From positions 1 to 64,000 of the IMG/VR virus record IMGVR_UViG_3300042509_002293: a stretch of 64,000 bases of DNA; one strand, written 5' to 3'. The notes below the pieces were generated by a model, which was given only the letters and a program-made list of their open reading frames with translations, did not search any database and was not told the origin of the DNA. Below, in pieces: positions 2,989 to 64,000 of the stretch. Position numbers and translations under genes: made by a program. Source of the stretch: a virus. Every line of letters starts with the position of its first letter. Position 1 is the stretch's first letter.

Positions 2989-3174
2989 ATGGAGAGGTTT
3001 TGCGTGCAGATCGTGGAGGGCGTCGTTGCTCGCGTCATAGTCTGCGACAGTGCCGAGTGGGCAGCCACCACGCACGGTGGCGAGTGGGTGGAGACGGACA
3101 CGCTGCCGGGGATCGGCTGGGTCTACATGGACGGCGAGATTGTTCCGCCGCCCGACGAGGCAGGGACTGCGTGA
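2989..3174 (+). CDS. Small partner of glycine-rich protein
   Basis: GVVARVIV...WVET...GIGWVY motif; adjoins upstream stop. Confidence 0.55.
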   Translation: MERFCVQIVEGVVARVIVCDSAEWAATTHGGEWVETDTLPGIGWVYMDGEIVPPPDEAGTA

Positions 3175-3546: not shown

Positions 3547-3903
3547 GTGGGCCGGATGAAGGAATTCGATCTTCGCATCAGGGGCGGCGGAGACGACGCG
3601 ATCCAGGCCATCTCCGAGTATCTGGAAGCCCAGGACAAAGACCTCGTCGCGAGGCTTCGTCGCTGGCTGGAATCGCCGAGCGGGGAGCACGACCCGGGCG
3701 GACTGGTTCAGGCCGCCATCGAGGAGATCGTGTCGCTCAGGGCCATGCTGACCAGGGAGCGGGAGTCGGCGAGCCTGTCCGTCAGGCTGATGACCGAGAA
3801 CGCGTACAAGGCCGGGTACATGGAGGGCGGCATGGAGATGATCCTCCTGGGGCAGGACGCCAAGAAGGTCGCGAAGTCGTGCCTGAAGAGGTTCAATCAA
3901 TGA
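3547..3903 (+). CDS. Hypothetical protein, paralog of 5772..6086
   Basis: Strong RBS; DLVARLRRWLE...EIVSLRAML...GYMEGGMEM vs DVVARINRWLE...EIVALRALL...GFLLGGLEM. Confidence 0.7.
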   Translation: MGRMKEFDLRIRGGGDDAIQAISEYLEAQDKDLVARLRRWLESPSGEHDPGGLVQAAIEEIVSLRAMLTRERESASLSVRLMTENAYKAGYMEGGMEMILLGQDAKKVAKSCLKRFNQ

Positions 3904-4088
3904 GCTACGTCGACGACCCGAGCAGCGCCCTGCTCTACATCGACTTCATGGTTCGTTTCGGCCACGACAAGGACGTCGTGAGAAACATGGCCGGCGTCTC
4001 CGGGGTCATCCGAGACTTGATGCGACGCCTGGAAGAGCAGGCCATGCGGATGGAGAAGGCGGAGATGAAGAAGGGGGCCGGCGAATGA
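3900..4088 (+). CDS. Hypothetical protein
   Basis: ATGA overlaps with both neighbours. Confidence 0.55.
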   Translation: MSYVDDPSSALLYIDFMVRFGHDKDVVRNMAGVSGVIRDLMRRLEEQAMRMEKAEMKKGAGE

Positions 4089-4336
4089 GCGGCGATCTCC
4101 AGATCGACGGATACCGGCTCCTCCTCACCTGCCCGGCCTGCCCCGAGCAGTACGACGTGCTCGACGGCACTGAGCAGGTCGGCTACCTGCGGCTCCGGCA
4201 CGGCTACTTCCGGGCCGACGCCCCGATGCACGGAGGCGAGACCGTCTACGAGGCCCACACCCGTGGAGTTGGGTCGGAGACGGCAAAGGTTACCCACTGG
4301 ATGCCGCTCCCGGCCCCGCCCGAGACGAGCAGGTAG
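4085..4336 (+). CDS. Hypothetical protein with DUF551-like C-terminus
   Basis: TCPACPEQYD...VGYLRLRHG followed by VTHWMPLPAPP. Confidence 0.65.
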   Translation: MSGDLQIDGYRLLLTCPACPEQYDVLDGTEQVGYLRLRHGYFRADAPMHGGETVYEAHTRGVGSETAKVTHWMPLPAPPETSR

Positions 4337-4341
4337 CCACA

Positions 4342-4425
4342 GAACTCGCAGGATCAGGAGCATAGCATGAGCGACGAAACGAAACCGCAGGACGGTGCCG
4401 AGCCGTCTCCTGCATCCGCTGGTTC
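4342..4425 (-). repeat. attC-like imperfect palindrome 1
   Basis: + strand GAAC-5nt-GGAT-CAGGAG ... CTCCTG-C-ATCC-4nt-GTTC; 84 nt. Confidence 0.7.
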
Positions 4426-4705
4426 GCACGGGTCTGCATCTCGCTGGAACGGCGTGCCGGTAGCGTGGGCAGCGGTCGGCAGGAACGGCGTGCCGATGTG
4501 GCTGGCGTACCATCGACAAGACGCCGAAGGTGCTGTGGTCGGCATGGCCGAAGTTGTTCCGCTCTACCGCTCGCCCACGCTCACCGATGCGGAGCGGGAG
4601 GCGATTGAGAAGGCCATCGGGCGAGAGTTGGACGCTGAGTGGTACGGCGGGAAAGAGCCTGACCGAGTGGTGGCTCTTCGCGGGCTTCTTGAACGGACGA
4701 AGTGA
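4367..4705 (+). CDS. Cassette-like hypothetical protein
   Basis: Start codon inside attC-like element; leader AEPSPASAGS; PVAWA...VPLYR, LTDAEREAI. Confidence 0.7.
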   Translation: MSDETKPQDGAEPSPASAGSHGSASRWNGVPVAWAAVGRNGVPMWLAYHRQDAEGAVVGMAEVVPLYRSPTLTDAEREAIEKAIGRELDAEWYGGKEPDRVVALRGLLERTK

Positions 4706-4789
4706 GAACGACAAGGATCACGAGCGGCGAACTATGAGCAATGACAACACGCGAGACGCGGCCGAGCCGTCTCTTGCATCCGCTGGTTC
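4706..4789 (-). repeat. attC-like imperfect palindrome 2
   Basis: GAAC-GACAA-GGAT-CACGAG-CGGC ... GCCG-T-CTCTTG-C-ATCC-GCTG-GTTC directly after a TGA stop. Confidence 0.7.
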
Positions 4790-4976
4790 TGCGGCGTGGA
4801 TTTCGTCAAGCGATCGACTTCCGCCAGAAGGAGTGCTCGTCTTTGCCTACGGCAAGCGTGCGGAGTACGGGTTCCGCCGCGACGGCCAGTGGGTGGATAC
4901 GCTTTACGGCGGCGTGCTGGCGAACGGGCCGACTCACTGGATGCCGATGCCGCCGCCGCCCGAGACGAGCAAGTAG
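4734..4976 (+). CDS. DUF551-like protein (cassette)
   Basis: WISSSDRLP...THWMPMPPPP; leader AEPSLASAGS. Confidence 0.7.
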   Translation: MSNDNTRDAAEPSLASAGSAAWISSSDRLPPEGVLVFAYGKRAEYGFRRDGQWVDTLYGGVLANGPTHWMPMPPPPETSK

Positions 4977-4981
4977 CCACA

Positions 4982-5064
4982 GAACGCCAGCGATCAGCGG
5001 CATCGAACACAGGAGCAACCATGAGTGACGAGGTTGATGAGATGTCCGCTGCATCGCGTGGTTC
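4982..5064 (-). repeat. attC-like imperfect palindrome 3
   Basis: GAAC-GCCAG-CGAT-CAGCGG-CAT ... ATG-T-CCGCTG-C-ATCG-CGTG-GTTC; compensatory changes relative to elements 1, 2, 4. Confidence 0.7.
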
Positions 5065-5326
5065 TCAGCCGGTGGCGTGGGCGGTCTGGTCGCCTGCCTT
5101 TGGCTACCCGTTTGGCGATGCGGCAATCTTCAAGCGGAACGAACTCGCAATCGAAATGTGCGTGATGAATGCGTACGGCGTGGACGACATTGTTCCGCTG
5201 TATCGCAAGCCGATGCTGGAAGACGAGGAGTTGAAGGCGATCCGAAGGGCGGCGGCAGTGGCGCGAGAGATGCACGACACGCGGCTAGAGGCTGCGTTGG
5301 GTGGCCTACTGGAACGACTAGGCTGA
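5021..5326 (+). CDS. Cassette-like hypothetical protein
   Basis: AGGAG RBS and ATG inside element 3; PVAWAV...VPLYR shared with 4367..4705. Confidence 0.7.
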   Translation: MSDEVDEMSAASRGSQPVAWAVWSPAFGYPFGDAAIFKRNELAIEMCVMNAYGVDDIVPLYRKPMLEDEELKAIRRAAAVAREMHDTRLEAALGGLLERLG

Positions 5327-5410
5327 GAACGTGAAGGATCAGGAGCGGCGAACTATGAGCGATGACAACACGCAGGGCGGTGCCGAGCCGTCTCCTGCAT
5401 CCGATGGTTC
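5327..5410 (-). repeat. attC-like imperfect palindrome 4
   Basis: GAAC-GTGAA-GGAT-CAGGAG-CGGC ... GCCG-T-CTCCTG-C-ATCC-GATG-GTTC. Confidence 0.7.
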
Positions 5411-5642
5411 TCACGGGGATGGCATGGTTGCGCGCCTCCGCAGTTGGAGGGACGAGCGCGGCTACCCAACGCCGGGAGAGATGCTGGACGAGGCGGCGGC
5501 CGAGATCGAGCGGCTGCGGCTCACCGACGCGGAGCGGGAGGCGATTTGGACTGTCGCGGAGGCGTATGCCGAGAACGACGGCGACCCGGAGTGCGAGAGG
5601 ATCGCCAGAATCATGCAAGGGCTGTGGCAACGGACGAAGTGA
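5355..5642 (+). CDS. Cassette-like hypothetical protein
   Basis: Leader AEPSPASDGS; EAAAEIERLR, LTDAEREAI. Confidence 0.7.
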   Translation: MSDDNTQGGAEPSPASDGSHGDGMVARLRSWRDERGYPTPGEMLDEAAAEIERLRLTDAEREAIWTVAEAYAENDGDPECERIARIMQGLWQRTK

Positions 5643-5771
5643 GAACCAGTGTTTCTACGGACCTGGATAATCTCCCCCTGTCGGATAACACTCCGGCGAT
5701 TTGCGCCGCGCGGCCGCTAGGCGCAACGTGCGGACGTTACGCAGCGAGGTAACGCCGCCGCTTGAGACGAG

Positions 5772-6086
5772 GTGAATGAGGTGTCCGCTGCATCGAGTGG
5801 TTCTCATGGGAGATTTGAAATGGACGTTGTGGCTCGCATCAACCGCTGGCTTGAGGACGAGGATGCTGCCGACGCAGACGAGACTCTGCACGATGCACGC
5901 GACGAGATCGTCGCCCTTCGGGCGTTGCTGAAGCGGCATAGTGAGGCGGCGCACCATGCGGTCAAGATGATGGGCGAGTACGCAGAACAAAGCGGGTTTC
6001 TGCTTGGCGGACTGGAGATGGTGGCGGCCGGGCACACCACAGCCGACAAGGTGCTAAAGGTGCTCAAGGCGAAGTACCGGGACTGA
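5772..6086 (+). CDS. Hypothetical protein (start 5772 or 5820), paralog of 3547..3903
   Basis: Overlaps an orphan attC-like right arm (about 5781-5803); shared motifs with 3547..3903. Confidence 0.65.
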   Translation: MNEVSAASSGSHGRFEMDVVARINRWLEDEDAADADETLHDARDEIVALRALLKRHSEAAHHAVKMMGEYAEQSGFLLGGLEMVAAGHTTADKVLKVLKAKYRD

Positions 6087-6102
6087 GAACACGGAAGACA
6101 AA

Positions 6103-6360
6103 ATGAACGACTTCTCCCTTTCCACAGCCGGGCTCATCTTCGCCACCTACGTCGCCGTTGACATCCTCTACGCCCTGTACATCATCGCGGTCGAAAAGCG
6201 GCGGGCCCTGGCGGCGGCGGCGATCTCGACGGTCCTGTACTCGCTCCTGGCGTTCGGGGTCATCACCTACTCAAAGAACCCGCTTTACCTCGTGCCGCTG
6301 GCTTCGGGGGCGTTCATTGGGACGTACCTGACCGTGCGGTTTCATCATCTCGTCAAATGA
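6103..6360 (+). CDS. Small membrane protein
   Basis: Three hydrophobic segments in 85 aa. Confidence 0.65.
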   Translation: MNDFSLSTAGLIFATYVAVDILYALYIIAVEKRRALAAAAISTVLYSLLAFGVITYSKNPLYLVPLASGAFIGTYLTVRFHHLVK

Positions 6361-9816: not shown

Positions 9817-10173
9817 ATGGCGAATCCCAACCTTGCGACAGCGGGAAGCATTTACGGCGGCACGGGCGTGCTCGCGGCCGGAACGTCCTCGGTGGCGATC
9901 GTGAGCAACTCCACGGCCAGCGGGAAGATCCTGAAGGTCAACTCCCTGCTCCTGGCCAACACGACGACCGGAAACGTCGACGTGACCGTGGACCTGTTCA
10001 GGTCGGGCACGGCCTACAAGATCGCCAACGCCGTGAGCGTGCCGTCCAACGCCACGCTGGCCGTGCTGTCCAAGGACAGCCCGGTCTACCTCGTCGAGGG
10101 CGACTCGCTCCGGGTCGTTGCCAGTGCGACGGCGTCGCTCTCGGCCGTGTGCTCTTACGAGGAACTCTCGTAA
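9817..10173 (+). CDS. Virion structural protein
   Basis: MANPNL...KILKVNSLLLAN...YLVEGDSLR...SYEEL. Confidence 0.6.
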   Translation: MANPNLATAGSIYGGTGVLAAGTSSVAIVSNSTASGKILKVNSLLLANTTTGNVDVTVDLFRSGTAYKIANAVSVPSNATLAVLSKDSPVYLVEGDSLRVVASATASLSAVCSYEELS

Positions 10174-10946
10174 TGCGAGGCCGGATCGGAGGGTGGATCG
10201 GCAAGAGCACGCTCCCGAACGGGACGGCGGCGAAGGGCTCCTGGGGGCTCGGTGAAGTTTTTCTGGCCAGGAAGGGCTACCTCGGCGCCTATTACGACGA
10301 CTATTACGGAGGGTACCAGCCACCCGGATCTGGCTCGACATGGCCAGCCGGAGACGTGTCGATTTCATGGCCTACGGCCAACTACTACCCGTATCCAGAG
10401 ATGAACTACTCTGATGCCACGGTCTCCGGAGAAGCAAGCTTCTCGCCGACCGTGACGTCCTCATACGGGTCCGTCTCCTACTCCTGGGAGCGGTCAACCA
10501 ATGGCGGAACCTCCTGGGCGGCTGTCCCAGGTGAAAGCTCCGCGTCGCTGGTCCTTCCAGGGCAGACGATCGACGAGGATGGCGACCAGTACAGGCTCGT
10601 GGTCAACGCCGGCCTGAAGCAGTTCCGTTCGTCGCCCGGGTTTCTCCGATTCGACACCGTGACGATCTCCAACATTTCCATCACCGCAGAAAGCTATTCT
10701 GGCGGCAGCATCTACCTGAGCGTGGTCTCTTATGACTGCGTTGGTACGGAGTACGGGGAGAGCTATGAAGCCAGCTTCCAGTGGCAACAGAGCACCAATG
10801 GGGGCGTCTCCTGGAGCAACATCAGCGGAGCCACCGGCGCATATACGTCGTTTGCTGGCAGCGTGTCGAACCTCTATAGGGTGAAGGCAACTTTCGCCAG
10901 CGTGGTCGCCTACTCGGCCGGCATTTCCGTGTACAGCTACGAATAG
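10173..10946 (+). CDS. Ig-like domain virion protein
   Basis: Two copies of Y/FxWxxSTNGGxSWxxI/VxG...YR. Confidence 0.65.
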   Translation: MRGRIGGWIGKSTLPNGTAAKGSWGLGEVFLARKGYLGAYYDDYYGGYQPPGSGSTWPAGDVSISWPTANYYPYPEMNYSDATVSGEASFSPTVTSSYGSVSYSWERSTNGGTSWAAVPGESSASLVLPGQTIDEDGDQYRLVVNAGLKQFRSSPGFLRFDTVTISNISITAESYSGGSIYLSVVSYDCVGTEYGESYEASFQWQQSTNGGVSWSNISGATGAYTSFAGSVSNLYRVKATFASVVAYSAGISVYSYE

Positions 10947-10956
10947 GATCTTACGA

Positions 10957-11214
10957 ATGAATCTTGAAAGCCCAGTGACGGTCCTGCGAGGCGAAGATCA
11001 GGCCACGTTTTCGGAACTCGACCTCACCGTCATCGACAACATGGCGAGGCGGGTGTGCCTAGTTCGGTTCCTGGGGTTCACCAGACCTCTCGTGCTCTGG
11101 TCTGGGGCCTCTTATGAGGCAGCGGGCGACTACACCCAGGCCCAGATCGAGGCCAGAGTTCGCGAGATCCTGGGCGAGAACCCGGGCGAAGTGCTCCAGT
11201 CGCTCTATGCCTGA
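10957..11214 (+). CDS. Hypothetical virion-associated protein
   Basis: LVLWSGASYEAAGDYTQAQIEARV. Confidence 0.6.
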   Translation: MNLESPVTVLRGEDQATFSELDLTVIDNMARRVCLVRFLGFTRPLVLWSGASYEAAGDYTQAQIEARVREILGENPGEVLQSLYA

Positions 11215-46428: not shown

Positions 46429-47334
46429 CTACCCCGAGTGGTCGCCCCCGGCTGGCCTGTTGTCGCGGTGAAGCGACGGCAGGACGTGGCAGGGCGGAGT
46501 TCCCAGGTCTGCATAGCGAGGATCTAGGTATGCCCTCGTGACGCGTGGGCTACTGTGATCAAGCAGGAGGGTGGCATTGCCTCCCCGGGCAGCGAAGTGT
46601 GACGCCGCGCAGCGTCTCAGTTGATGAAATTTCGCTCGCCGACCTCCGGGAAGTCCGGCCGCCTGGACGATATCGCCGAACCGCTTCCAGATGTGCGCGT
46701 AGCAGCGGTCCCACTTGAAGATCAGGTCCGTCGGTGACTTCCCTCGGCACATCGCGTCGACGAGTTCGCACGTCTCGTCGGTGAGCGTGTAGAGCCGGTC
46801 CCGTTTCCCGCCCTTGCGGTGCTCGGCCTTCACGAGGAGCCTCGGGCTGCTCCAGTCCTCGACGCGAGCGGCGAAGATCGCGCCGCACCGTTCTGCGGTC
46901 TCGTAGAGCACACAGATCAGGGTCCGCCAAAAGAGCCCCGCCGGAATGCCGCTGATCCTCCCCGGCGTCGCCCCGGCGACCAGGGCGAGATGCTGGAGTT
47001 CTGCGACGGACCAGCATGACGGAACCCGTTCGGGGAGACGGGCGGAGGGGGGCACGCACGGCGCGGTGGGGACGATGCCGCGATCACGAGCGAACCGCCA
47101 GAGCGAACACAACTGATTGCGTTCTTTCTCGCTCGTGTAGGGGCTCCTCTCCCTCGATCGCTTGTCGAGGAACCTCGACAGCACGAGGTCGTCAAAGTCA
47201 GCCGTCGTCGCCGGCCTGCCGAGGAATTTGTCGAAAGTCCTCAGTGTGCAGTGGTAGAGCCGGGTGGTGTTCTCAGATCGGCCCCGCAGACGAAGCGGGC
47301 GGAAGTGTTCCTCGAATAACTCGTTGAGTTTCAT
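46429..47334 (-). CDS. int: Tyrosine recombinase / integrase
   Basis: YETAER (R), RKGGK (K), HQLR (HxxR), DH and Y in DHSSPRVTRAY; GGAGGT RBS. Confidence 0.9.
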   Translation of the reverse strand: MKLNELFEEHFRPLRLRGRSENTTRLYHCTLRTFDKFLGRPATTADFDDLVLSRFLDKRSRERSPYTSEKERNQLCSLWRFARDRGIVPTAPCVPPSARLPERVPSCWSVAELQHLALVAGATPGRISGIPAGLFWRTLICVLYETAERCGAIFAARVEDWSSPRLLVKAEHRKGGKRDRLYTLTDETCELVDAMCRGKSPTDLIFKWDRCYAHIWKRFGDIVQAAGLPGGRRAKFHQLRRCAASHFAARGGNATLLLDHSSPRVTRAYLDPRYADLGTPPCHVLPSLHRDNRPAGGDHSG

Positions 47335-47444
47335 TGTGCGTACCTCCAAAAGGAAAAGGGGGAGAATACGCGTCCTTGCGGTGAGAACATCCCTGCGTTG
47401 GGGGGCCCTGACCAAGCGTGCCGAGTGACGGTGCCGTTTTACCG

Positions 47445-47732
47445 CTACGACCGACACCCGCGACGGTCTCCTTTCACGGCTACTCGAATGTCTTCTCCGA
47501 TCGCGAGCGCGGCGTACTCGATCGTGTTCATCGGCGGCTCGTCGCGGCTCCCGTCGAACATGAGAACGAGGTGATACGGGATCACCTCCCGGACGATCTT
47601 CCGCACAGCCTCGTTGCCGACGACGCGTCCAACTCTGGACTCGACGATCTCGGCGATTCGCTCGACGTCCTTGTCGAAGTCTCTGAGTGGATGCGTCTCG
47701 GTTTCTTTGACGTCATCCCAGAAGGGCTTCAT
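47445..47732 (-). CDS. Hypothetical protein
   Basis: 95-aa ORF co-oriented with integrase. Confidence 0.5.
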   Translation of the reverse strand: MKPFWDDVKETETHPLRDFDKDVERIAEIVESRVGRVVGNEAVRKIVREVIPYHLVLMFDGSRDEPPMNTIEYAALAIGEDIRVAVKGDRRGCRS

Positions 47733-55832: not shown

Positions 55833-55884
55833 GCCTGTTTTTGCGGGCTTTTTGTGACCAGTGTCATAGAGACTTGCCCCACAC

Positions 55885-55913
55885 TTGCAATGCACCGAGG
55901 CCGGTGCTATACT
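55885..55913 (+). promoter_or_regulatory. Repeated promoter-operator, copy 1
   Basis: TTGCAA-TGCACCGAGGCCGGTGC-TATACT. Confidence 0.85.
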
Positions 55914-55957
55914 CTTGGGGTCGGACGAAACCACCCGCCAACGAAGGACTGAAACCC

Positions 55958-57064
55958 ATGAACAACGTCGCCGCCGCCCCCGCCTGGAAGAGCTACTACG
56001 TCGGAGCCACCGTCGCCACCCCTGACGGCATCGAGTGGAAGATCATCGAGTGCCAGAAGCGGCCCACGGCCAAGGGCTACCAGAGCCGCGTGTTCACGCT
56101 GCTCGGTCCTGACGGACGCAAGGTCCGGAAGACCGCCCGTGGCATCACCCTGTTCTCAGCGGGGGTCGAGGTCAGCGAGGCGAAGCCCCAGGTCGTCGAG
56201 TTCGCCCCGGCGGAGCCTGTCGCTCCGGCCCCCGTGGTGGAGCCCGTCCCGGGTCAGGTCCGGCATGCCAACTACGGGGCCCTCCTACGGGCGGTCGCCG
56301 CGAAGTGCAACGTCTGGCTCGTCGGCCCGGCCGGCTCCGGCAAGACCTCGGCCGCCGAGAACGTGGCCAAGGACCTCGGCCTGCCCTTCTACTCGAAGAG
56401 CGTCGGCCCGCAGACCAGCGAGTCGAGCCTCCTGGGCTACCAGGACGCCAACGGACGCACGGTCCGGACGCTCCTCCGCGAGGCGTTTGAGCACGGCGGC
56501 GTGTTTCTCCTGGACGAGGTCGACGCGGCCAACCCGGCCGTCCTCGTCGTGATCAACGCCCTGCTCGCGAACGGCCACTGCGCGTTCCCGGACGGGGTCG
56601 TCGAGAAGCATCCGGACTTCACGCTGATCGCCGGCGCCAACACGATCGGCCAGGGTGCGGACCGCCAGTACGTCGGCCGGCAGCAGATCGACGCCGCGAC
56701 GCTCGACCGGTTCGTGAATCTCGTGTGGGACTACGATCCGGCGATCGAGGCCGCCGCCGCCGGCGTCCCGCTCGCCGCCGTGGCCGACGCCCCCAGGCCT
56801 GCGGCCATCGCGTTCGAGGTCGGCGTCACGCCCGCCGAGACCGAGCGGCGGGCCGCCGAGTACGTCCGGTACGTCGTGGCGGTCCGCAACGCCGTGGCGT
56901 CGTTCGGCAAGTCTGTCCGGTTCATCGTCAGCCCTCGGGCCAGCAAGCATGGGGCCGCCCTGGTCCGGGCCGGGTTCTCGATCGCGGACGCCTGCGAACT
57001 GGCGATCTGGAAGGGGCTCGACTCCGACACCCGGGCCAAGCTGGAGGCGGCCGCCGCACGCTAG
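55958..57064 (+). CDS. MoxR/CbbQ-like AAA+ ATPase
   Basis: GPAGSGKT, LLDEVD, HPDF.LIA.ANT.G.G...Y.GR...DAATLDRF, SPR. Confidence 0.9.
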   Translation: MNNVAAAPAWKSYYVGATVATPDGIEWKIIECQKRPTAKGYQSRVFTLLGPDGRKVRKTARGITLFSAGVEVSEAKPQVVEFAPAEPVAPAPVVEPVPGQVRHANYGALLRAVAAKCNVWLVGPAGSGKTSAAENVAKDLGLPFYSKSVGPQTSESSLLGYQDANGRTVRTLLREAFEHGGVFLLDEVDAANPAVLVVINALLANGHCAFPDGVVEKHPDFTLIAGANTIGQGADRQYVGRQQIDAATLDRFVNLVWDYDPAIEAAAAGVPLAAVADAPRPAAIAFEVGVTPAETERRAAEYVRYVVAVRNAVASFGKSVRFIVSPRASKHGAALVRAGFSIADACELAIWKGLDSDTRAKLEAAAAR

Positions 57065-57093
57065 TTGCAATGCACCGAGGCCGGTGGTATACT
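57065..57093 (+). promoter_or_regulatory. Repeated promoter-operator, copy 2
   Basis: TTGCAA-TGCACCGAGGCCGGTGG-TATACT. Confidence 0.85.
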
Positions 57094-57112
57094 CACACGA
57101 CCCCCAGGAGGA

Positions 57113-57946
57113 ATGCCCGTGATCCACAAGTTTGAGTCGTTCGAGAAGTTCATCGAGCAGGCCCTGGTCGTCCCGTCCAGGCAGGACAGTTCGAGCAGCC
57201 GGCAGACGCGAGAAGGCAAGGACCCGTGGCACGGGACGAACACCTTCGAGCAGGCTGTCGAGATCGCCCGGAAGGGGTGGCCGGAAGGGGCCGCCAAGGC
57301 CCTGGAGCTACGGGCCGAGGTCGAGTCGGCGGTCCGGGACCTGATCAACGCCCGGTCGAGTTCGTACACGTTCGACCTTGTCGGCGAGTACGTCGACATC
57401 GGCCGGCACCTGTCCGGCGAGCCGGAATGCTTCGGCACCGAGGTGACCGACGGCAGCAGCGTGTCGCGGCCGGTGGTCAAGATCGTGGCGAACCTCGCCG
57501 CCAGCGGCTCGATCAGCCCGAGGAGCCTGTTCGTCCGGGGGGCCGCGATCGTGGCCGCCATCGACATCCTGGAGGCCCTCGGCCGCCGTGTCGAGGTGTG
57601 GGTCGCCCACGGGTCCGCGACGCGTCGGGGCGGCGGCGCCACCCACGAGTCTCACGTCCTGGTCAAGAGTGCCGACCAGCCCCTCGACGTTGACAGGCTC
57701 AGCTTCGCCGTGGCCCACCCGGCCTGCCTGCGGCGGCTGTGTTTCTCTGTGATGGAGCAGCGTGGGCACCTGCCCAACTCGACCTACCCCCACAGCGTCA
57801 CGGTCGAGGGCGACGCCATCGTCACCAAGCACTCACTCCGGGGGTCCGACTTCTCGAAGCGGGAACTCCTGGAACTCGTGGCCGAGCTTTGCGGGCAGGC
57901 GGGGGTCGAGATTGACGAGGAAGAGGTGGATGCGGCCTGCCACTAG
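57113..57946 (+). CDS. vWA-like partner of the AAA+ ATPase
   Basis: G..VDI.R.LSGEPEC, ASGS, RGA...LE..G..VEV, HP..LRRL; follows MoxR-type ATPase. Confidence 0.6.
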   Translation: MPVIHKFESFEKFIEQALVVPSRQDSSSSRQTREGKDPWHGTNTFEQAVEIARKGWPEGAAKALELRAEVESAVRDLINARSSSYTFDLVGEYVDIGRHLSGEPECFGTEVTDGSSVSRPVVKIVANLAASGSISPRSLFVRGAAIVAAIDILEALGRRVEVWVAHGSATRRGGGATHESHVLVKSADQPLDVDRLSFAVAHPACLRRLCFSVMEQRGHLPNSTYPHSVTVEGDAIVTKHSLRGSDFSKRELLELVAELCGQAGVEIDEEEVDAACH

Positions 57947-57972
57947 ACAATGCACCGAGCCCGGCGTATACT
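57944..57972 (+). promoter_or_regulatory. Repeated promoter-operator, copy 3 (variant)
   Basis: TAGACA-ATGCACCGAGCCCGGCG-TATACT. Confidence 0.7.
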
Positions 57973-57997
57973 TGGGAAGTCACGAGGAGACATCGAC

Positions 57998-58213
57998 ATG
58001 AAAACGGTTCGCCCAATCTCGTTCTTCCCGCCGTCGTCCGGCAAGGGCAAGTGGCATGCAGCCGCAGCGTGCAGCACCCTGTCGGCGTGCGGCTCGGGGG
58101 CGACGGTCAACTCGCTCGGGTTTCAGCGGATTCAGGTCGAGGGTGGAGTCGAGGCGAAGTGGGTTCATCCGATTTGTTGCCGTCGGTGTCTGAAGCAAGC
58201 CTGTGGGGAGTAA
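57998..58213 (+). CDS. Small Zn-binding protein
   Basis: KWH...ACG...CRRC; GAGGAG RBS. Confidence 0.6.
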   Translation: MKTVRPISFFPPSSGKGKWHAAAACSTLSACGSGATVNSLGFQRIQVEGGVEAKWVHPICCRRCLKQACGE

Positions 58214-58217
58214 CGCG

Positions 58218-58733
58218 ATGCACTACAAATTCCTGCGAGTCACGAGCAACGAGGGCCGCTGCGAGAAGTGCGGCACCGTCTGCCCGAAGCGGCGTGTCGA
58301 GGTCCTGCCGGTCGACGCCGATGGCAATGCCTGCGGTGAAGTGCAACTCTGGGGCGTCAACTGCGCGGCCCAGGCCCGCTACGGCTCGAAGGCCCGCAAG
58401 TACCAGGAGCGGGTCGTGGTCGAGGCCGACACGGCCGAGCGGGAGCGGGCCTACCAGGAGCGGCAGAAGCTGGCTCGGGTCGCGGTCGTCGGCCAGAGCT
58501 ACGACTTCGGCGGGCCGGCCACGGTCGTCTTCTGCCGTGACGGGCTCGACAGCGAGGGCCTCGCCAACCGGCTCTACCGCCGGACCGGCCGCAGCCTCGT
58601 CGGCAGCTACTTCGCCCGTGGCCCCCGGGGAGAGGTCGTGCGGGTCGACGGCAGCGATGCCGCCGACGTGGCGTTCTTCGCGGAGCGGGGGTACGTTCAG
58701 GTCTCGAACCCGGTCGAGGAGGTGCTCCACTGA
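58218..58733 (+). CDS. Zinc-finger hypothetical protein
   Basis: CEKCG...WGVNCA. Confidence 0.65.
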   Translation: MHYKFLRVTSNEGRCEKCGTVCPKRRVEVLPVDADGNACGEVQLWGVNCAAQARYGSKARKYQERVVVEADTAERERAYQERQKLARVAVVGQSYDFGGPATVVFCRDGLDSEGLANRLYRRTGRSLVGSYFARGPRGEVVRVDGSDAADVAFFAERGYVQVSNPVEEVLH

Positions 58734-58933
58734 GCGACCTGCGCCACGGCGACAAAGTGAAGGTCCTGGTCGACGGCCAGTGGGTCGAGGCGACGCTCAC
58801 CCACCCGTCCCTACAGCTTCCCAGGGGCATGGGGGAGGCGTGGCACTTCACGCTCGATCCCGAGTGTCCGGCCGAGCCCGGCCGAGACTGGGCCCCGGCA
58901 AAAGACATCAAAAAGGCCGACTAAAGCCCGGGG

Positions 58934-58962
58934 TTGCAATGCACCGATAACGGTGGTATACT
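58934..58962 (+). promoter_or_regulatory. Repeated promoter-operator, copy 4
   Basis: TTGCAA-TGCACCGATAACGGTGG-TATACT. Confidence 0.85.
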
Positions 58963-58985
58963 TGGGCCACCCCAGGAGAAAAGCC

Positions 58986-59945
58986 ATGACCGACCTCACC
59001 AAGCTTTCGCCGTCCGAAGTCGACACGATCTACCTGGAGCGGCTTGCGGCCCTCCAGCGGGCATGGAGGGAGGTCGAGTACGCCTCCCTCGCCGTCCTGC
59101 GTGAGTCTGGCCGAGGCATCACCGTCGAGGTCGCGAACCGCAAGGGCTACCCGGTCCACGAGACCGTCTACGTCCACCCGTCGTTCGGGCAGACGCTCCA
59201 GGCGTGGTATCGGACCTACAAACTCGACGACGTCCGCGTCCACGTCCTGACCGTCGAGCGGTGCCTCGCCGAGGGGCTCGCCCCCGCCGCCGCCGCAAAG
59301 CTGGCCCAGGCCGAGGCCGCCTGCCGCGACGCCCAGGCGGCCTGCCACGAGGTCGAGACGGAGTACGATCGCCGCCCCTGGAGCCGCTACTGGCTCGTCA
59401 CGTCAAGCGACGGGCACATCCACCGGTCGACGTGCTGCTCGACCTGCAACAAGGGCCTCAACCGCACCGGGTTCGCCCTGACGCCGTTTCTGAGCGGCAA
59501 GGCCGACTCCGATGCCGTGGCGGACCTGGGCCCGGCCCTGTGCTCGGTCTGCTTCCCTGAGGCCCCTGTCGAGTCGAAGGAGCAGGCCCGCATCCCGGCC
59601 CGGCTCGCCCTGGCCCTCGCCGAGGAGGGCGTCGAGGCCTTCCAGAAGGCCCGCCAGGAGGCCGCCGCCAAGCAGGCCGCCCGGTGCCCCGGCTCGGGTC
59701 AGCAGGGCCTCCCAGGCAGCCACAGGGCCTTCCACAAGTGCCCGGTCTGTGGCGAGTCTCAGCGGGCCACCCCGGGCGGCAAGTTCCGGCCCCACAAGCC
59801 GGCCCGGTTCAACGTCGAGAACGCCGACTACAAGGCCTGGAACGGCTCGGCCTGGGGCCCGAAGACGAAGGCCGCGATCTACGGGTCGCTCGAAGAGGCC
59901 GAGGCGGTGGCGGCCCAGGTCGGCGGCACGGCGAGGAGGAAGTGA
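58986..59945 (+). CDS. Cys/His-rich hypothetical protein
   Basis: WSRYWLV..SDGHIH...CSTC, LCSVCFP.AP, CPGSG...CPVCG...RPH. Confidence 0.75.
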   Translation: MTDLTKLSPSEVDTIYLERLAALQRAWREVEYASLAVLRESGRGITVEVANRKGYPVHETVYVHPSFGQTLQAWYRTYKLDDVRVHVLTVERCLAEGLAPAAAAKLAQAEAACRDAQAACHEVETEYDRRPWSRYWLVTSSDGHIHRSTCCSTCNKGLNRTGFALTPFLSGKADSDAVADLGPALCSVCFPEAPVESKEQARIPARLALALAEEGVEAFQKARQEAAAKQAARCPGSGQQGLPGSHRAFHKCPVCGESQRATPGGKFRPHKPARFNVENADYKAWNGSAWGPKTKAAIYGSLEEAEAVAAQVGGTARRK

Positions 59946-59947
59946 GG

Positions 59948-60145
59948 ATGAACAAAATCACCTGGGATGACTGCCGCAAGGGCGACGAACTATCGGCCAG
60001 CCTGGACGGACGATTCACGATCCGCTTCCGCCTAGCTGCCGATGGCAAGCCTGTCCGGCTGAGGATGAATGGCGAGTACATGGGGTCGTTCAGCACGATC
60101 GCGGCGGCCAAGAGACACGCCTCAAGACTGGCGAAGGTGAAGTGA
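59948..60145 (+). CDS. Hypothetical protein
   Basis: F.T.AAAK motif; coupled genes. Confidence 0.55.
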   Translation: MNKITWDDCRKGDELSASLDGRFTIRFRLAADGKPVRLRMNGEYMGSFSTIAAAKRHASRLAKVK

Positions 60146-60390
60146 TGGAACTCGAAGAACCTCTCGATCCGAAGGAAGCCGCCGCCGCCATCCGAGGCAT
60201 CGTGACGAACTGGCGGACCTGCACCCAGGCCGCCGGGCTCGCCAGGAAGGCCGGGAGGGGCCAGGACGCCGTCGAGCCCCTGGCGACCGCCGTGGCCGCG
60301 ATCATCGAGGCGGCGGCGTGGCTGTCCCAGGGCGACGGCGAGGACCGGCTCACCCTGGCCCGAGCCGTGGCGGAGAGCCTTGTGTCATAG
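60145..60390 (+). CDS. Hypothetical protein
   Basis: Ends in the repeat-derived GTGTCATAG. Confidence 0.55.
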   Translation: MELEEPLDPKEAAAAIRGIVTNWRTCTQAAGLARKAGRGQDAVEPLATAVAAIIEAAAWLSQGDGEDRLTLARAVAESLVS

Positions 60391-60482
60391 GCCGAAAACG
60401 GCCCCCTTGCAATGCACCGACATCGGTGCTATACTTGGGGCAGACGGGACGAGACACCACTAACCAGGAGACGACCAGTGAA
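60382..60482 (+). repeat. Stop-promoter-operator-RBS-start repeat A (promoter 60407-60435)
   Basis: GTGTCATAG..CCCCTTGCAATGCACCGACATCGGTGCTATACTTGGGGCAGACGGGACGAGACACCACTAACCAGGAGACGACCAGTGAA. Confidence 0.9.
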
Positions 60483-61212
60483 CACCGCCACCAGCTACAC
60501 CGCCGCCCAGGGGTTCGCCGCTCTCGCCGCCATCAAGTCGGCCAAGGCCAAGTACGACGCCATCGCTTCGCGAGACGCGGTCGGCGGGTTCCGCCACTGC
60601 CCCGACGCGAAGGTCGCTGCCGAGTACCACTCGGCTGGCCAGAAGCTGTTCGAGGTCGCCGACTACTTCTTCGCGACACTCACCGGCTTCAAGACGCTGA
60701 ACGAGTGCCTCGACGCCCAGGGGCACGGCTACCGCCCGACGTTTCGCGAGGAAGGCGGCAAGGACGCCGAGGTCGTGTTTCTCGCCGAGGTCTACGACTA
60801 CCTCGCCGAGACTCGCGGATTGCCGCTTCGGGCCTACCGGCCCGAGCAGGCTGTCCCGGCCAAGCTGACCCTCGCCTCGATCAAGGCGAAGCTTCGAGAC
60901 CTTCGCGAGGAAGCGCACCGCGAGACTCGGTCGATCGACGCTAAGTATTTTCGATCGAGCGGCCACGAGGTTCGCCTCGGCGGCGGCCCGGACGGCTATT
61001 ACGAGTACGGCGGCGCCTGGGACGGGACGCTCAAGGACCTGAAGGACCACGCCGAGCGGTGCCGCAGCAAGGGAGGGGACACCGTCGACATCGGGGGGCA
61101 ATGGCTCTGCGGAAACGACCTCAACGACACGTTCGACCCCACCGACTGCGAGTGGTTCGTCAGCCTGACCGTCGACGAGATCCTGGGGATCGGCAGGAAG
61201 GCCGTGTCATAG
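60478..61212 (+). CDS. Hypothetical protein
   Basis: GTG start and RBS supplied by repeat A; ends AVS* in repeat B. Confidence 0.75.
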   Translation: MNTATSYTAAQGFAALAAIKSAKAKYDAIASRDAVGGFRHCPDAKVAAEYHSAGQKLFEVADYFFATLTGFKTLNECLDAQGHGYRPTFREEGGKDAEVVFLAEVYDYLAETRGLPLRAYRPEQAVPAKLTLASIKAKLRDLREEAHRETRSIDAKYFRSSGHEVRLGGGPDGYYEYGGAWDGTLKDLKDHAERCRSKGGDTVDIGGQWLCGNDLNDTFDPTDCEWFVSLTVDEILGIGRKAVS

Positions 61213-61292
61213 CCCCTTGCAATGCACCGAGACCGGTGCTATACTTGGGGCAGACGGGACGAGACACCACTAACCAGGAGACGACCAGTGAA
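61204..61292 (+). repeat. Repeat B (promoter 61217-61245)
   Basis: Near-identical to repeat A. Confidence 0.9.
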
Positions 61293-61557
61293 CGCCACAA
61301 ACGCCTTCCGCGACCAAGTCAATCAGCGAATCACGCTCGTCGTCCGCATTGCCAAAGACGAAAGCGGCCGCCCGAGGGCGCACACGTTCAACGAAGCCCG
61401 ATATGCGATTCTTGAAGGCCAGGACAGAGTCAAGTTTAGCGCTCGCATCCCGATGTTCGGGCTGTCTGAATTCCGGGAGGTTTCCGCTCGCGTCCACCAC
61501 GTCGGATTCGACGGCACTGTCTACCTCAAGAATGTTCGCCTGCGAAAGTCCCGCTGA
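61288..61557 (+). CDS. Hypothetical protein
   Basis: Start supplied by repeat B; lower GC. Confidence 0.65.
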   Translation: MNATNAFRDQVNQRITLVVRIAKDESGRPRAHTFNEARYAILEGQDRVKFSARIPMFGLSEFREVSARVHHVGFDGTVYLKNVRLRKSR

Positions 61558-61588
61558 TTGTCCGGACACGCCAACCAGGAGCCCGCTC

Positions 61589-61891
61589 GTGACCACCTTC
61601 AAAACCACCATCCGCTGCGGAGACACGCTCCACGTCCTCGTGGCGGGCACGGCCCAGGAACTGGCCTCCCTGGCTTCCAGGACGGCCTCGAAGCTCCTGA
61701 GGGCCAACGGCGACGCCGTCCAGGCCCAGGACGGCTCGTCGACCTGGATCGTCGACGAGGAGGTCCACCCGGCGGTCTGGCACCAGGACGGCAACCGGGT
61801 CCGGGCGGTCCGGGTCCAGTACCACCGGGACACGGCCGGGAAGGTCTCGAAACAGGCCCTCCGGAACGTGTGGATTTCGGCCGTGTCATAG
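61589..61891 (+). CDS. Hypothetical protein
   Basis: CAGGAG RBS; ends AVS* in repeat C. Confidence 0.6.
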   Translation: MTTFKTTIRCGDTLHVLVAGTAQELASLASRTASKLLRANGDAVQAQDGSSTWIVDEEVHPAVWHQDGNRVRAVRVQYHRDTAGKVSKQALRNVWISAVS

Positions 61892-61972
61892 CCCCCTTGC
61901 AATGCACCGAGGTCGGTGCTATACTTGGGGCAGACGGGACGAGAAACCACCAACCGGGAGACGGCCAGTGAA
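61883..61972 (+). repeat. Repeat C (promoter 61897-61925)
   Basis: Few mismatches to repeats A and B. Confidence 0.9.
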
Positions 61973-62660
61973 TATCCACTTCGACATCAACGCGACCAGC
62001 CAGACCGAGTGGTACGACATCCGGTGCGACAAACTGCCCGGCCAGGAACTTGGCTACATCTACCTCTGCCCCGGCTACGGCGGCAGCTACTGCTACACCA
62101 TCAAGACGCAGTCGGCATACAAGCGGCATCGCGGCGCCCTCCGCAGCCGCCTGTTCAAGACCCTCGACGAGGCAAAGCAGGCCGCGAAAGCCACCGTCGC
62201 CCGTCGGCTGAAGCAGGAGCGGGACGCGGAGCCCGTCAAGCACGGCTGCGGCCACTACTACAAGGGCGGCCCGAGGTGGTACTACGTCTACGTCGGGAGC
62301 AAGGGAGAGGCCCTCTGCTACCCGCAGCCGGCGGCCTCGAAGAAGGACGCCCTGGCGAAGCTCCAGACCCTGCCGCTCTGGGTCAAGCACCCGGTGGACG
62401 TCGTCGAAGGCGTAGTCCGCTGGAAGTCGAACGGCAGCGTGCCGCCGGCTGACTGCCGGGAGAAGCTCCGGGCCGAGGGGGTCCGATTCGACGAGGCCAA
62501 GTCTGCGGCCGCCGACAAGGCCGACTTGGAGGCTCTGCTCGCCGAGTGCCGCAGCCGCCCCCGGGACGACAGCCCCGAGGCCCAGTTCGAGCGACGGGCC
62601 GCGTTCGGGCCTGGGCAGACGATCGTCGACGTCCTCGGCGGTCATCGGTACGAGACCTGA
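61968..62660 (+). CDS. Hypothetical protein
   Basis: Start supplied by repeat C; C-terminal RW.SN..VPP.D...E.RAAFGPG..IVDV..G. Confidence 0.75.
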   Translation: MNIHFDINATSQTEWYDIRCDKLPGQELGYIYLCPGYGGSYCYTIKTQSAYKRHRGALRSRLFKTLDEAKQAAKATVARRLKQERDAEPVKHGCGHYYKGGPRWYYVYVGSKGEALCYPQPAASKKDALAKLQTLPLWVKHPVDVVEGVVRWKSNGSVPPADCREKLRAEGVRFDEAKSAAADKADLEALLAECRSRPRDDSPEAQFERRAAFGPGQTIVDVLGGHRYET

Positions 62661-62669
62661 GGAGCCCCC

Positions 62670-62698
62670 TTGCAATGCACCGGCCTCGGTGATATACT
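62670..62698 (+). promoter_or_regulatory. Repeated promoter-operator, copy 8
   Basis: TTGCAA-TGCACCGGCCTCGGTGA-TATACT. Confidence 0.85.
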
Positions 62699-62736
62699 GC
62701 CCCCAGTCGCCCACCACTCACGAAAGGACCTGACCC

Positions 62737-63600
62737 ATGAGCAACGCCCGCACCGACGTCCATGCCCCGGCCGCCGCTGGCTTCGACCCCGAGGCTTACG
62801 CCTGCTACGGCTGCTTCGACAACGGCGAGCCGTTCTCGGCCCGCGAGCGGCATGAGGCCGTGAAGTCCCTCCGGGATCGCGGATTCAAGTGCGGCCACGG
62901 CTCCAGCGGTCAGTGCGGCCACTGCGGTGCCCATATCCGCTACACCGCCCTGCTCGCCCGCGAGGACGTGAAGGAGTTCATCTTCGTCGGCGAGGACTGC
63001 CTGGGGAACCGGTTCTCCGGCATCACCGCCGGGCAGTTCCAGGAGCTTCGCCGGCGGGCCGCGCTCAATCGGGAGCGGGCCGGCAAGGAAGAGCGGATCG
63101 AGCGGCTCCAGGCCGAGCACGCCTGCCTCAAGCGGCTCGTCGAGGACGGCAGCCACGGCAGCGAGTTCCTGTCCGACGTCCGATCCAAGTTCCTCGCGAA
63201 CGGTCGCCTGAGCGACGCCCAGGTCGCCGCCGTTGGCCGGGCGTTCGAGGGCATCGACCGTCGCGCCAAGTGGGACGCCGAGCGTCGCGAGCGGGCCGCC
63301 GCCCTGGTGGCCGCCGGGGTCCGGGCCCCGCAGGGGCGGGTCGAGGTGGTCGGCCAGATCGTCTCGGCCAAGTCTCAGCTTAACGCCGTCGGCGAGCCCT
63401 GCGTGAAGATCGTGATCCGCACCGACGCCGGCTGGTCGGCCTGGGTCACGCTCCCGTCGGCCCTCGACGACGGCAGCGACGTGAAGGGGCGACGGATCAA
63501 GCTGTCCGCGACCCTGACGCCGTCGGACAAGGACGCCACGTTCGCGTTCGGGAAGAGGCCGACGAAGGCGGCTTTTCTCGACGCGGCGGCCACTGCCTGA
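62737..63600 (+). CDS. Zn-finger protein with OB-fold-like C-terminus
   Basis: CGHCG.HIRY...VGEDC; FL.D...LSDAQ; F.FGKRPTKA. Confidence 0.7.
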   Translation: MSNARTDVHAPAAAGFDPEAYACYGCFDNGEPFSARERHEAVKSLRDRGFKCGHGSSGQCGHCGAHIRYTALLAREDVKEFIFVGEDCLGNRFSGITAGQFQELRRRAALNRERAGKEERIERLQAEHACLKRLVEDGSHGSEFLSDVRSKFLANGRLSDAQVAAVGRAFEGIDRRAKWDAERRERAAALVAAGVRAPQGRVEVVGQIVSAKSQLNAVGEPCVKIVIRTDAGWSAWVTLPSALDDGSDVKGRRIKLSATLTPSDKDATFAFGKRPTKAAFLDAAATA

Positions 63601-63642
63601 TTGTCTGGATACGTCACCCATCAAGAACAGGAGACACGACTC

Positions 63643-64000
63643 ATGCTGATTCGCAATGACCAGGACAAGGCCCAGGCCAAGCTGCTCGACGCCATCAACT
63701 GGAAGGTGGTCGAGGCCCATCGGGCCGAGATCGCAGCCAAGGACAAACTCGCCGAGAAGGTCGCCCTGTGTGCCGCCAGCGGCGTCCAGGCGGCCGGCGA
63801 GGCGGTGAGACTCGCCCGCGTCGCGAAGAACTGGCAGTGGGTCCTCAAGTGTGCGGGCAAGGCCTGTGCGGACGGCAGCAACGACGTGTCCGGCGCCGTG
63901 GCCCAGTGCGTCGCCAGCATCCGCCGGTCGATCGAGTTGGCCGCCGAGACCGGGCCCTCGACGTGCCCGTTCCACAACGCCGTCGACTTTGCGGAGGCCC
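63643..64000 (+). CDS. Hypothetical protein, 3'-truncated by window edge
   Basis: CAGGAG RBS, ATG at 63643, open to the end. Confidence 0.65.
   Translation, partial: MLIRNDQDKAQAKLLDAINWKVVEAHRAEIAAKDKLAEKVALCAASGVQAAGEAVRLARVAKNWQWVLKCAGKACADGSNDVSGAVAQCVASIRRSIELAAETGPSTCPFHNAVDFAEA

Follow-up and report, generated by a model that had tools for sequence, protein, structure and literature searches.

A series of small gene cassettes in a lake-water phage very probably constitutes a phage-borne cluster of attC sites lacking an integrase (CALIN), with four cassettes intact, a fifth decayed and, at the distal end, a gene that resembles a cassette, for which the host would provide the integron integrase (IntI) in trans. 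The stretch analyzed (the window, 64,000 nt) is the first 64 kb of IMG/VR virus record IMGVR_UViG_3300042509_002293, which is 96,079 bp long, 98% complete and has a G+C content of 64%. Small genes run in series on its plus strand from 4085 to 6360, and in front of four of them stands an imperfect palindrome of 83-84 nt that holds the ATG of the gene behind it. The four intact sites lie within 1.1 kb and no intI is found nearby, in line with a CALIN (at least two attC sites, intI absent nearby), and the intI with its insertion and the attI beside the array that characterize a complete integron are both missing. An earlier note, made from the letters of this stretch, had proposed a CALIN-like array in a phage, and our data support it for a phage that lacks IntI.

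Single-strand folds gave one shape for all four sites. On the plus strand, GAAC is followed by 5 unpaired nt, stems of 4, 6 and 4 bp and the loop, and the 3' arm then has stems of 4, 6 and 4 bp, with a T bulged out after the first and a C after the second, before 4 unpaired nt and GTTC. This geometry holds on both strands, the minus strand reading GAAC-4-GGAT-[G]-CAGGAG-[A]-CGGC...GCCG-CTCCTG-ATCC-5-GTTC, and the fold of site 3 is kept by five compensated pairs (CGAT/ATCG, CAGCGG/CCGCTG, CATC/GATG); both the minus-strand geometry and the compensatory swaps had been claimed before and were reproduced here. The four palindromes that the earlier note placed at 4342, 4706, 4982 and 5327, 0-5 nt past stop codons, were all in place: they begin 5, 0, 5 and 0 nt past the stops at 4334-4336, 4703-4705, 4974-4976 and 5324-5326. 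As it also described, the start codons (ATG at 4367, 4734, 5021 and 5355) lie inside the variable loops and the 3' arm codes for a common leader (...AEPSPASAGS / ...MSAASRGS). The sites exceed chance by a wide margin: a strict geometric scan of the 96-kb genome returned these four sites and no others. The z-scores of their fold energies (-0.7, +0.7, -2.3 and -2.8 for sites 1 to 4) are weak evidence alone.

In the attC sites described by Nivina et al. (2016; PMC5027507), the AAC/GTT triplets of the R box are the only sequence conserved in all sites, the bottom strand carries two or three extrahelical bases on the arm opposite AAC, with the first and last of them 6 bp apart, the distal extrahelical base is a conserved T, and the exchange point is A|C of AAC. 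The window sites likewise have AAC/GTT, opposite-arm bulges, a 6-bp stem, the distal T, an unpaired spacer and a variable loop, and, when numbered from the 3' end, the bulges of the window sites and of attCaadA7 alike are at positions 16 and 23. Two covariance models were used, R1, derived from the phage sites, and R2, built only from 45 native IntI-linked attC sites of Cyanobiaceae and run unfiltered over the whole window on both strands. The top four R2 matches over the 64 kb were the four sites, on the plus strand only (36.7, 22.5, 20.9 and 20.0 bits), and the next match scored 7.9 bits. The attC-like reading is thus borne out by the published geometry and by a native-attC model that gives the four sites as the sole matches of at least 20 bits in the window, which, with our own model, was also the outcome of the covariance-model check on both strands that the earlier note had put forward. 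An Rfam cmscan of the region produced chance microRNA and snoRNA matches only; Rfam is uninformative on attC here because it was also blank on a true integron array. The elements of the array are as follows (ORF, open reading frame).

4085-4336, plus strand: DUF551 gene, cassette-like, at the distal end (Pfam DUF551, E 8e-7); its start overlaps the previous stop (ATGA)
4342-4425, plus strand (predicted bottom, recombined strand): attC site 1, 84 nt; AAC at 4343-4345, putative crossover 4344|4345; fold; R1 74.4 bits; R2 22.5 bits, whole-window E 1.3e-3
4345-4708, plus strand: cassette A, attC1 and ORF 4367-4705 (112 aa); attC1 3' flank matches the attC2 5' flank at 4/7, its own flank at 2/7
4706-4789, plus strand: attC site 2, 84 nt; AAC at 4707-4709; one C/T mismatch in the 6-bp stem; fold; R1 90.8 bits, R2 20.0 bits
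4709-4984, plus strand: cassette B, attC2 and DUF551 ORF 4734-4976 (80 aa; Pfam DUF551, E 1.5e-9); next-site flank 6/7, own 2/7
4982-5064, plus strand: attC site 3, 83 nt, covarying stem type CGAT-CAGCGG-CATC; AAC at 4983-4985; Shine-Dalgarno in the loop; R1 82.9 bits; R2 36.7 bits, E 3.3e-7
4985-5329, plus strand: cassette C, attC3 and ORF 5021-5326 (101 aa); next-site flank 7/7, own 4/7
5327-5410, plus strand: attC site 4, 84 nt; AAC at 5328-5330; 7-bp R box TGAGAAC/GTTCTCA; R1 96.5 bits, R2 20.9 bits
5330-5645, plus strand: cassette D, attC4 and ORF 5355-5642 (95 aa); next-site flank 5/7, own 4/7
5640-5646, plus strand: left box TGAGAAC (stop codon and GAAC box)
5646-6089, plus strand: cassette E with a decayed attC; ORF 5772-6086 (104 aa, GTG start); R1 only 13.2 bits, E 0.42
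6084-6090, plus strand: terminal TGAGAAC box (stop codon and AAC) with no hairpin behind it; by analogy with the related contigs L016/L055 and L020/L032, the attI-proximal array end in integron terms

The ends of the cassettes follow a rule that is characteristic of integron cassettes, whose R box is complete in the excised circle only. Across the site family, the six bases after the GTT of one site are complementary to the six before the AAC of the next site at 4.6 of 6 positions on average, as compared with 3.0 of 6 for the left flank of the same site and 2.97 of 6 for random pairs, which means that the bases after GTT are not complementary to their own site. The next-site match exceeded the own-site match 75 times and lost 11 times among the informative cases (p 7e-13), and in the window the ends of cassettes A to D match the next site at 4, 6, 7 and 5 of 7 bases vs 2, 2, 4 and 4 of 7 for their own site. 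Furthermore, the hairpin core was common to none of the 72 pairs of loci with a like upstream gene and an unlike downstream gene, with divergence starting 3-6 nt after AAC; when the downstream gene was alike and the upstream gene unlike, identity often spanned the whole site and ended at AAC. Because of this linkage pattern, the crossover is placed at the left AAC, and a cassette is taken as an attC and the gene after it. The breakpoints resolve the crossover to within about 3 nt after AAC, the exact phosphodiester bond being beyond that resolution.

Near-identical phages differ by whole cassettes. L055 and L016 share 99.65% identity over 9.8 kb and are set apart by a four-cassette block, exactly at ...AAC|, and L032 and L020, with 100% identical flanks, differ by a single cassette, again exactly at ...AAC|; both differences fall at the last box of the array. 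In the family at large, therefore, gene order is not fixed and the breaks lie at AAC, an outcome that runs contrary to the refuting result defined beforehand in the earlier note, and flank complementarity from each site to the next, together with these breakpoints, supports a cassette array. Directly behind the last AAC, similar palindromes (TATACGGCCCCGTATAACGC / ATACGCGGACCCGTATATCTGCAATAACGC) are found in L016 (reverse, near 9787) with L055 (near 3210) and in L020 (reverse, near 3093) with L032; such a palindrome could be a terminator or a phage counterpart of attI. No attI-like repeats were found behind the terminal AAC of the window (6088-6090).

The same sites are widespread among uncultivated phages. 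The exact pattern of one stem type (GGATCAGGAG...CTCCTGCATCC) occurs in 101 IMG/VR stretches, nearly all with a 67-nt span, and a relaxed structural scan of the related loci (1.07 Mb) gave 289 matches vs 11 in shuffled DNA. Same-strand arrays hold up to 9 sites, spaced 240-1000 bp apart, on contigs that derive from phages of 29 to 205 kb. We aligned 139 non-redundant sites, the four of the window included, which had been chosen by the pairing of the outer 10 bp, so that the innermost 4 bp were unused in the selection. AAC and GTT are invariant in 139/139 sites, and 96% of the 14-bp helix is paired, both partners having changed at 12 of the 14 pairs. Compensated cells numbered 377 vs 156 in shuffles, a value reached by none of 500 shuffles, and the signal collapsed once the partners were slid; the innermost 4 bp covary too (for example, one pair is GC in 62 sites, AU in 33, CG in 11 and UA in 7). 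The bulged bases are also conserved (T in 128/139 sites, C in 134/139). The loop ranges from about 5 nt, in sites of 45-53 nt, to about 40 nt, and it carries an in-frame ATG at 85% of 225 sites, opening ORFs with a median of 104 aa, while the end of the upstream ORF is at most 12 nt from AAC at 206 of the 225. Short 45-53-nt forms of the site-3 type without the Shine-Dalgarno/ATG loop were seen at L147:13780-13832(-) and L117:6448-6499(+). In addition, lake-run contigs that skip window positions 5001-5044 reach summed depths of up to 248, which points to a loop-less form abundant in the community.

Sites of the phage type were also found in a bacterial integron. A search for the exact stem pattern in the genomes of 185,579 species returned mostly chance matches of other spans and a few true members, one of them on contig JANWUS010000039.1 (L147, 15.8 kb) of Cyanobium sp. 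FGCU52. This contig is chromosomal, as it codes for an ABC exporter, an LCP transferase, TolC- and HlyD-type proteins and lipoyl synthase, and it carries an IntI (9903-10991; TIGR02249, 457 bits; cut-off 265) with a cassette array behind it, which, in the orientation opposite to that of intI, contains native attC sites of the same geometry together with two full phage-type sites (R1 92 and 67 bits) and one short 53-nt variant with no start codon, and cassette ends match between native and phage-type neighbours. R2 scored the phage-type sites of this integron at 21-29 bits, a range similar to that of the window sites. Their ORFs face attI/intI on the bottom strand, which, together with the loop ATG at most sites of the family, agrees with the earlier claim of inverted genes that start within the site. 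ORF 4367-4705 of the window is 49% identical to the Cyanobium cassette ORF L147:13831-14154(-), the C-terminal ~40 aa being nearly identical. A second contig of the same strain (L203) has two more sites, 5.6 kb from an IntI fragment. L147:14196-15720 also carries two identical copies of a two-gene cassette on the canonical strand, each bounded by a 95-nt native attC; from gene size and arrangement only, it may be a toxin-antitoxin pair.

In a sample of 121 Cyanobiaceae genomes, R1 had matches in 26, and IntI was present in 22 of these 26 vs 10 of the 95 without matches (p 8e-13). In 12 more Cyanobiaceae genomes, the DNA downstream of intI showed the geometry of the window sites 48 times on the predicted strand vs 12 on the other. 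These native sites share the layout AAC-5-4bp-6bp...6bp-[N]-4bp-4-GTT, at 77-96 nt, and have stem words (AGATCAGCGG, AGATCAGAAG) related to the phage ones. Unlike the phage sites, they fit RYYYAAC/GTTRRRY (e.g. TCTAAC/GTTAGA), have a variable base at position 16 and are sited beside intI and attI, and the 45 native sites show no obvious start codon with a downstream ORF. Many of them have GCAAGGAG or GCAAGAAG directly past the inner stem (columns 29-35 of alignment A3), Shine-Dalgarno-like and located where phage site 3 has its Shine-Dalgarno.

With regard to the enzyme, TIGR02249 had no match in the record of the window (96 kb, 98% complete), and IntI was not found in any of 49 other array-bearing records. 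The phage codes for a single tyrosine recombinase:

46429-47457, minus strand: sole tyrosine recombinase of the phage (PF00589, E 2e-11); no TIGR02249 match; short and Xer-like (weak model matches); 40 kb from the array

An alignment with Cyanobium IntIs showed that it lacks the IntI-specific ALxRKYP...WQWVFP segment, so the earlier statement that the phage integrase has no IntI-type insertion holds. It is probably a lysogeny integrase. Short (~285-305 aa) Xer-like tyrosine recombinases, of which we compared those of the window and 14 related records (L175-L188), are common to most array-bearing phages, whatever their genome size.

The main alternative to a host IntI is a self-contained phage system in which this shared recombinase works the hairpins without the IntI-specific domain, the likeness to host integrons reflecting a common site chemistry or cassettes captured now and then. 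Of the 49 array-bearing records, 29 carry one such recombinase, among them 10 of the 14 that are at least 90% complete; the enzymes are 34-72% mutually identical across phages of 29-97 kb (56% between the window and G027), their catalytic residues appear intact in the alignment, and in four records (G014, G023, G028, G043) an element lies 0.4-2 kb from the recombinase gene. On the other hand, the gene is missing from four complete array-bearing genomes, two of them of 204-205 kb, and it is 40 kb away from the array in the window, while in most of the records examined every element is more than 10 kb from it. The phage enzyme also lacks the IntI segment that binds the extrahelical bases, its size and single copy would equally suit an ordinary lysogeny integrase, and phage-type cassettes sit with correct junctions in an IntI integron. 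We therefore regard a self-contained system as unlikely. The same low probability attaches to the wider proposal of a "reverse integron" run by lake phages, in which attC would be both recombination site and translation-initiation/leader module, cassettes would pass between unrelated phages (29-205 kb) and host integrons, and an I2-less phage tyrosine recombinase, not a host IntI, would be the catalyst. We favour a host IntI acting in trans, the phage enzyme being its main rival. That a host or separate integron integrase shuffles the cassettes, as the earlier note suggested, would agree with the presence of phage-type cassettes in a chromosomal integron.

Under host-supplied IntI, each 83-84-nt site would be recombined as a folded single strand of phage DNA. 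The bottom strand would be the plus strand of the phage, that is, the coding strand, with AAC on the 5' arm and the extrahelical C (16) and T (23) on the 3' arm, and strand exchange would take place at AA|C of the left box. A cassette would then consist of C + hairpin + GTTnnnnnn + ORF + stop + nnnnnnAA, and its two ends would pair to a full R box in the excised circle only. As the genes sit on the bottom strand and so run counter to ordinary cassette genes, the attC would provide their translation start: its loop and 3' arm would act as a portable module with a Shine-Dalgarno, the ATG and a Pro/Ser/Ala-rich leader of 14-20 residues that ends in frame at GGT-TCx. The enzyme would most likely be an IntI given in trans by an integron-bearing host during infection, and the array of the window may be active at present.

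The location of the start codons also raises the question of whether the hairpins could be mRNA elements (a translational operator, an RNase III-type site or a stabiliser) around the starts of early genes, with shuffling arising incidentally from homologous recombination among the conserved copies. The structure does lie on the sense strand, the start codon is in the loop at 85% of sites, and the Shine-Dalgarno AGGAG is within the 6-bp stem in the commonest type. But site 3 and several further types have the Shine-Dalgarno in the loop and not in the stem, members of 45-53 nt that carry no ATG still score as family (L147 13780-13832), and the breakpoints lie at the AAC edge instead of within the conserved 80 nt. 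Moreover, the pairing of flanks across a gene is not explained by an intramolecular operator, and the sites are present in IntI arrays. We consider this explanation very improbable; an RNA side-effect on translation may exist alongside the DNA function. Sequestration of the Shine-Dalgarno as the purpose of the hairpin was ruled out, as the motif belongs to the stem or to the loop depending on the type of site.

Least probable of all is an inert relic, namely cassettes built in a bacterial integron, acquired once by the phage lineage and no longer able to recombine, for while the decayed site 5646-5803, the first gene (4085-4336) without its attC, the lack of IntI in the phage and the failure to find a close relative that displays turnover in its own lineage would fit it, the four intact sites with conserved bulges, the near-identical phages that differ by whole cassettes at AAC| and the same cassettes behind many different upstream genes in phages of 29-205 kb all speak against it. 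A miniature inverted-repeat transposable element or other transposon with terminal inverted repeats, repetitive extragenic palindromes with their associated transposase (REP/RAYT), a diversity-generating retroelement and pdif modules were all ruled out because the units are in frame with the downstream ORF and abut the upstream stop, there are no target duplications, and the breakpoints lie at AAC.

Several points weigh against a CALIN served by a host IntI. The proximal extrahelical base of the phage sites (position 16) is C, where attC usually has G, and their spacer is of 5/4 nt, where 5-6 nt is usual in the literature. The phage flanks, TGAGAAC or CACAGAAC and GTTCTCA or GTTCTGTG, do not match the attC consensus RYYYAAC/GTTRRRY. 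For three of the four sites, the R2 scores (20-22.5 bits) go no higher than about the usual threshold of 20 bits, and the training sites of R2 were picked by a geometry filter taken from the phage element, which makes the test not fully independent. Wobble pairs (18 G:T vs 12 A:C) give no strand signal. Phage-type sites beside an IntI come from a single bacterial genome, and the conserved phage tyrosine recombinase could be the enzyme. Recombination of the sites is deduced from comparisons of sequence. With respect to the flanks, RYYYAAC/GTTRRRY is a consensus and not a requirement, and we treat the mismatch as a difference between subfamilies; the purine-rich R-box flanks of the phage sites take in the upstream stop codon.

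Both lake Cyanobiaceae and Planctomycetota are candidates for the host. In the latter, R1 had matches in 7 of 40 genomes of one class; their native sites show the ...CTG-C-A... bulge context of the phage sites, and some (G177) measure 82 nt and, like the phage sites, combine purine-rich flanks with a loop ATG. Their R1 scores, 27-47 bits, are no better than those of the Cyanobiaceae natives (27-49 bits). An alphaproteobacterial host had also been considered from weak Rhizobium-phage matches and two contigs binned with a Beijerinckiaceae metagenome-assembled genome. Such a host is doubtful, since the two contigs are short arrays, possibly of phage DNA binned in error, and since no integrons or CALINs were found in 243 alphaproteobacterial genomes (Cury et al. 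2016, doi 10.1101/030866).

The phage itself has no close cultured relative: among 50,697 isolate phage records, neither the region (blastn) nor the terminase (tblastn) had anything better than short and weak matches, to Rhizobium, Sinorhizobium and Xanthomonas phages. An exact 32-mer of the flank had no match in metagenome contigs, and a neighbouring protein had no relatives among viral contigs. The stretch is contained in 24 lake-water runs, as Logan contigs that break at the repeated sites. In these contigs the summed depth in the array is ~10-100x that of the flanks, and the listed joints have sides of 19-33 nt, with the intervening stretch not resolved.

Integrons are generally seen as belonging to bacteria, and reports of attC clusters in phages have so far treated them as rare curiosities only. 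Of the 10,705 isolate phage genomes of Qi et al. (2023; PMC9892861), 21 had integron components, which included 17 CALINs, and IntI1 recombined five of the six phage attC sites tested there; CALINs and integrons of Cyanobacteria have been reported as well (Cury et al. 2016, doi 10.1101/030866). The array described here resembles published CALINs, including the phage ones, in having at least two attC-type hairpins within 4 kb and no intI nearby, AAC/GTT boxes, an unpaired spacer, extrahelical bases 6 bp apart, a variable loop, complementary cassette ends and small ORFs of unknown function. It differs from them in that the genes are on the bottom strand, the attC standing before the gene and giving it Shine-Dalgarno, ATG and leader, in its purine-rich R-box flanks (TGAG/CACAG) with the upstream stop and in its proximal extrahelical C. 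Furthermore, the family is very homogeneous and extends over more than 100 uncultivated phage contigs, in arrays of up to 9 sites, as compared with the 17 CALINs of Qi et al. We found no description of this site family, of reversed genes or of start codons within attC in the open-access literature, and this layout of a phage CALIN is apparently undescribed.

One homogeneous attC family thus joins more than 100 uncultivated lake phages of varied genome size with a chromosomal integron. If the reading is true, site-specific cassette exchange would rank among the main ways in which small accessory genes pass from phage to phage and between phages and their hosts, and an attC could sit inside a coding region, to which it would give ribosome site, start codon and leader. 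This bears on the creation of cassettes, on the expression of promoterless "wrong-way" cassettes and on the use of attC sites as structure-specific recombination tools. The window sites and a Cyanobium-type IntI form a testable pair. Repeated structured elements that flank small accessory genes are reportedly also found as promoter/stem-loop (PeSL) cassettes in the hyperplastic regions of T4-type phages, described by Arbiol et al. in 2010, and are likewise thought to mediate modular shuffling. Those promoter and hairpin units are said to act by homologous recombination and, in contrast to the sites of the window, to have no AAC/GTT, extrahelical bases or link to an integrase.

Several features at the margins of the array deserve mention. 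The DUF551 gene 4085-4336 ends in ...HWMPLPAPPETSR-TAG-CCACAGAAC, a tail that it has in common with ORF 4734-4976, and TAGCCACAGAAC is a frequent cassette end across the site family; judged by its sequence, the gene looks like a cassette ORF minus its own upstream attC. The partial sites listed in the earlier note are all real, and its orphan arm lies at 5781-5803 as given; the coordinates 5642 and 6087 were slightly off, the boxes being at 5640-5646 and 6084-6090. In cassette E this 3' arm is the sole remnant of a site-3-type attC and is joined to a remnant of a DUF551 tail (5748-5774). The decayed site 5646-5803 looks like the result of a deletion between short GACGAG repeats, which apparently fused that tail (resembling 4946-4972) to the loop of a site-3-type attC, and a 26-nt palindrome lies within the same region at 5701-5726. 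ORF 5772-6086 of the array and ORF 3547-3903, which lies before the array and has no attC, are paralogues, with 40% identity over 86 aa.

Cassette C was found at 88.5% identity and in a different gene order in L096, L100 and L123, where the membrane-protein gene that follows the array in the window (6103-6360) stands upstream of the site-3 cassette. Lastly, a first reading of the letters pointed to a candidate second array at 55861-64000 and beyond, which would be promoter-delimited and have a common GTGTCATAG junction.

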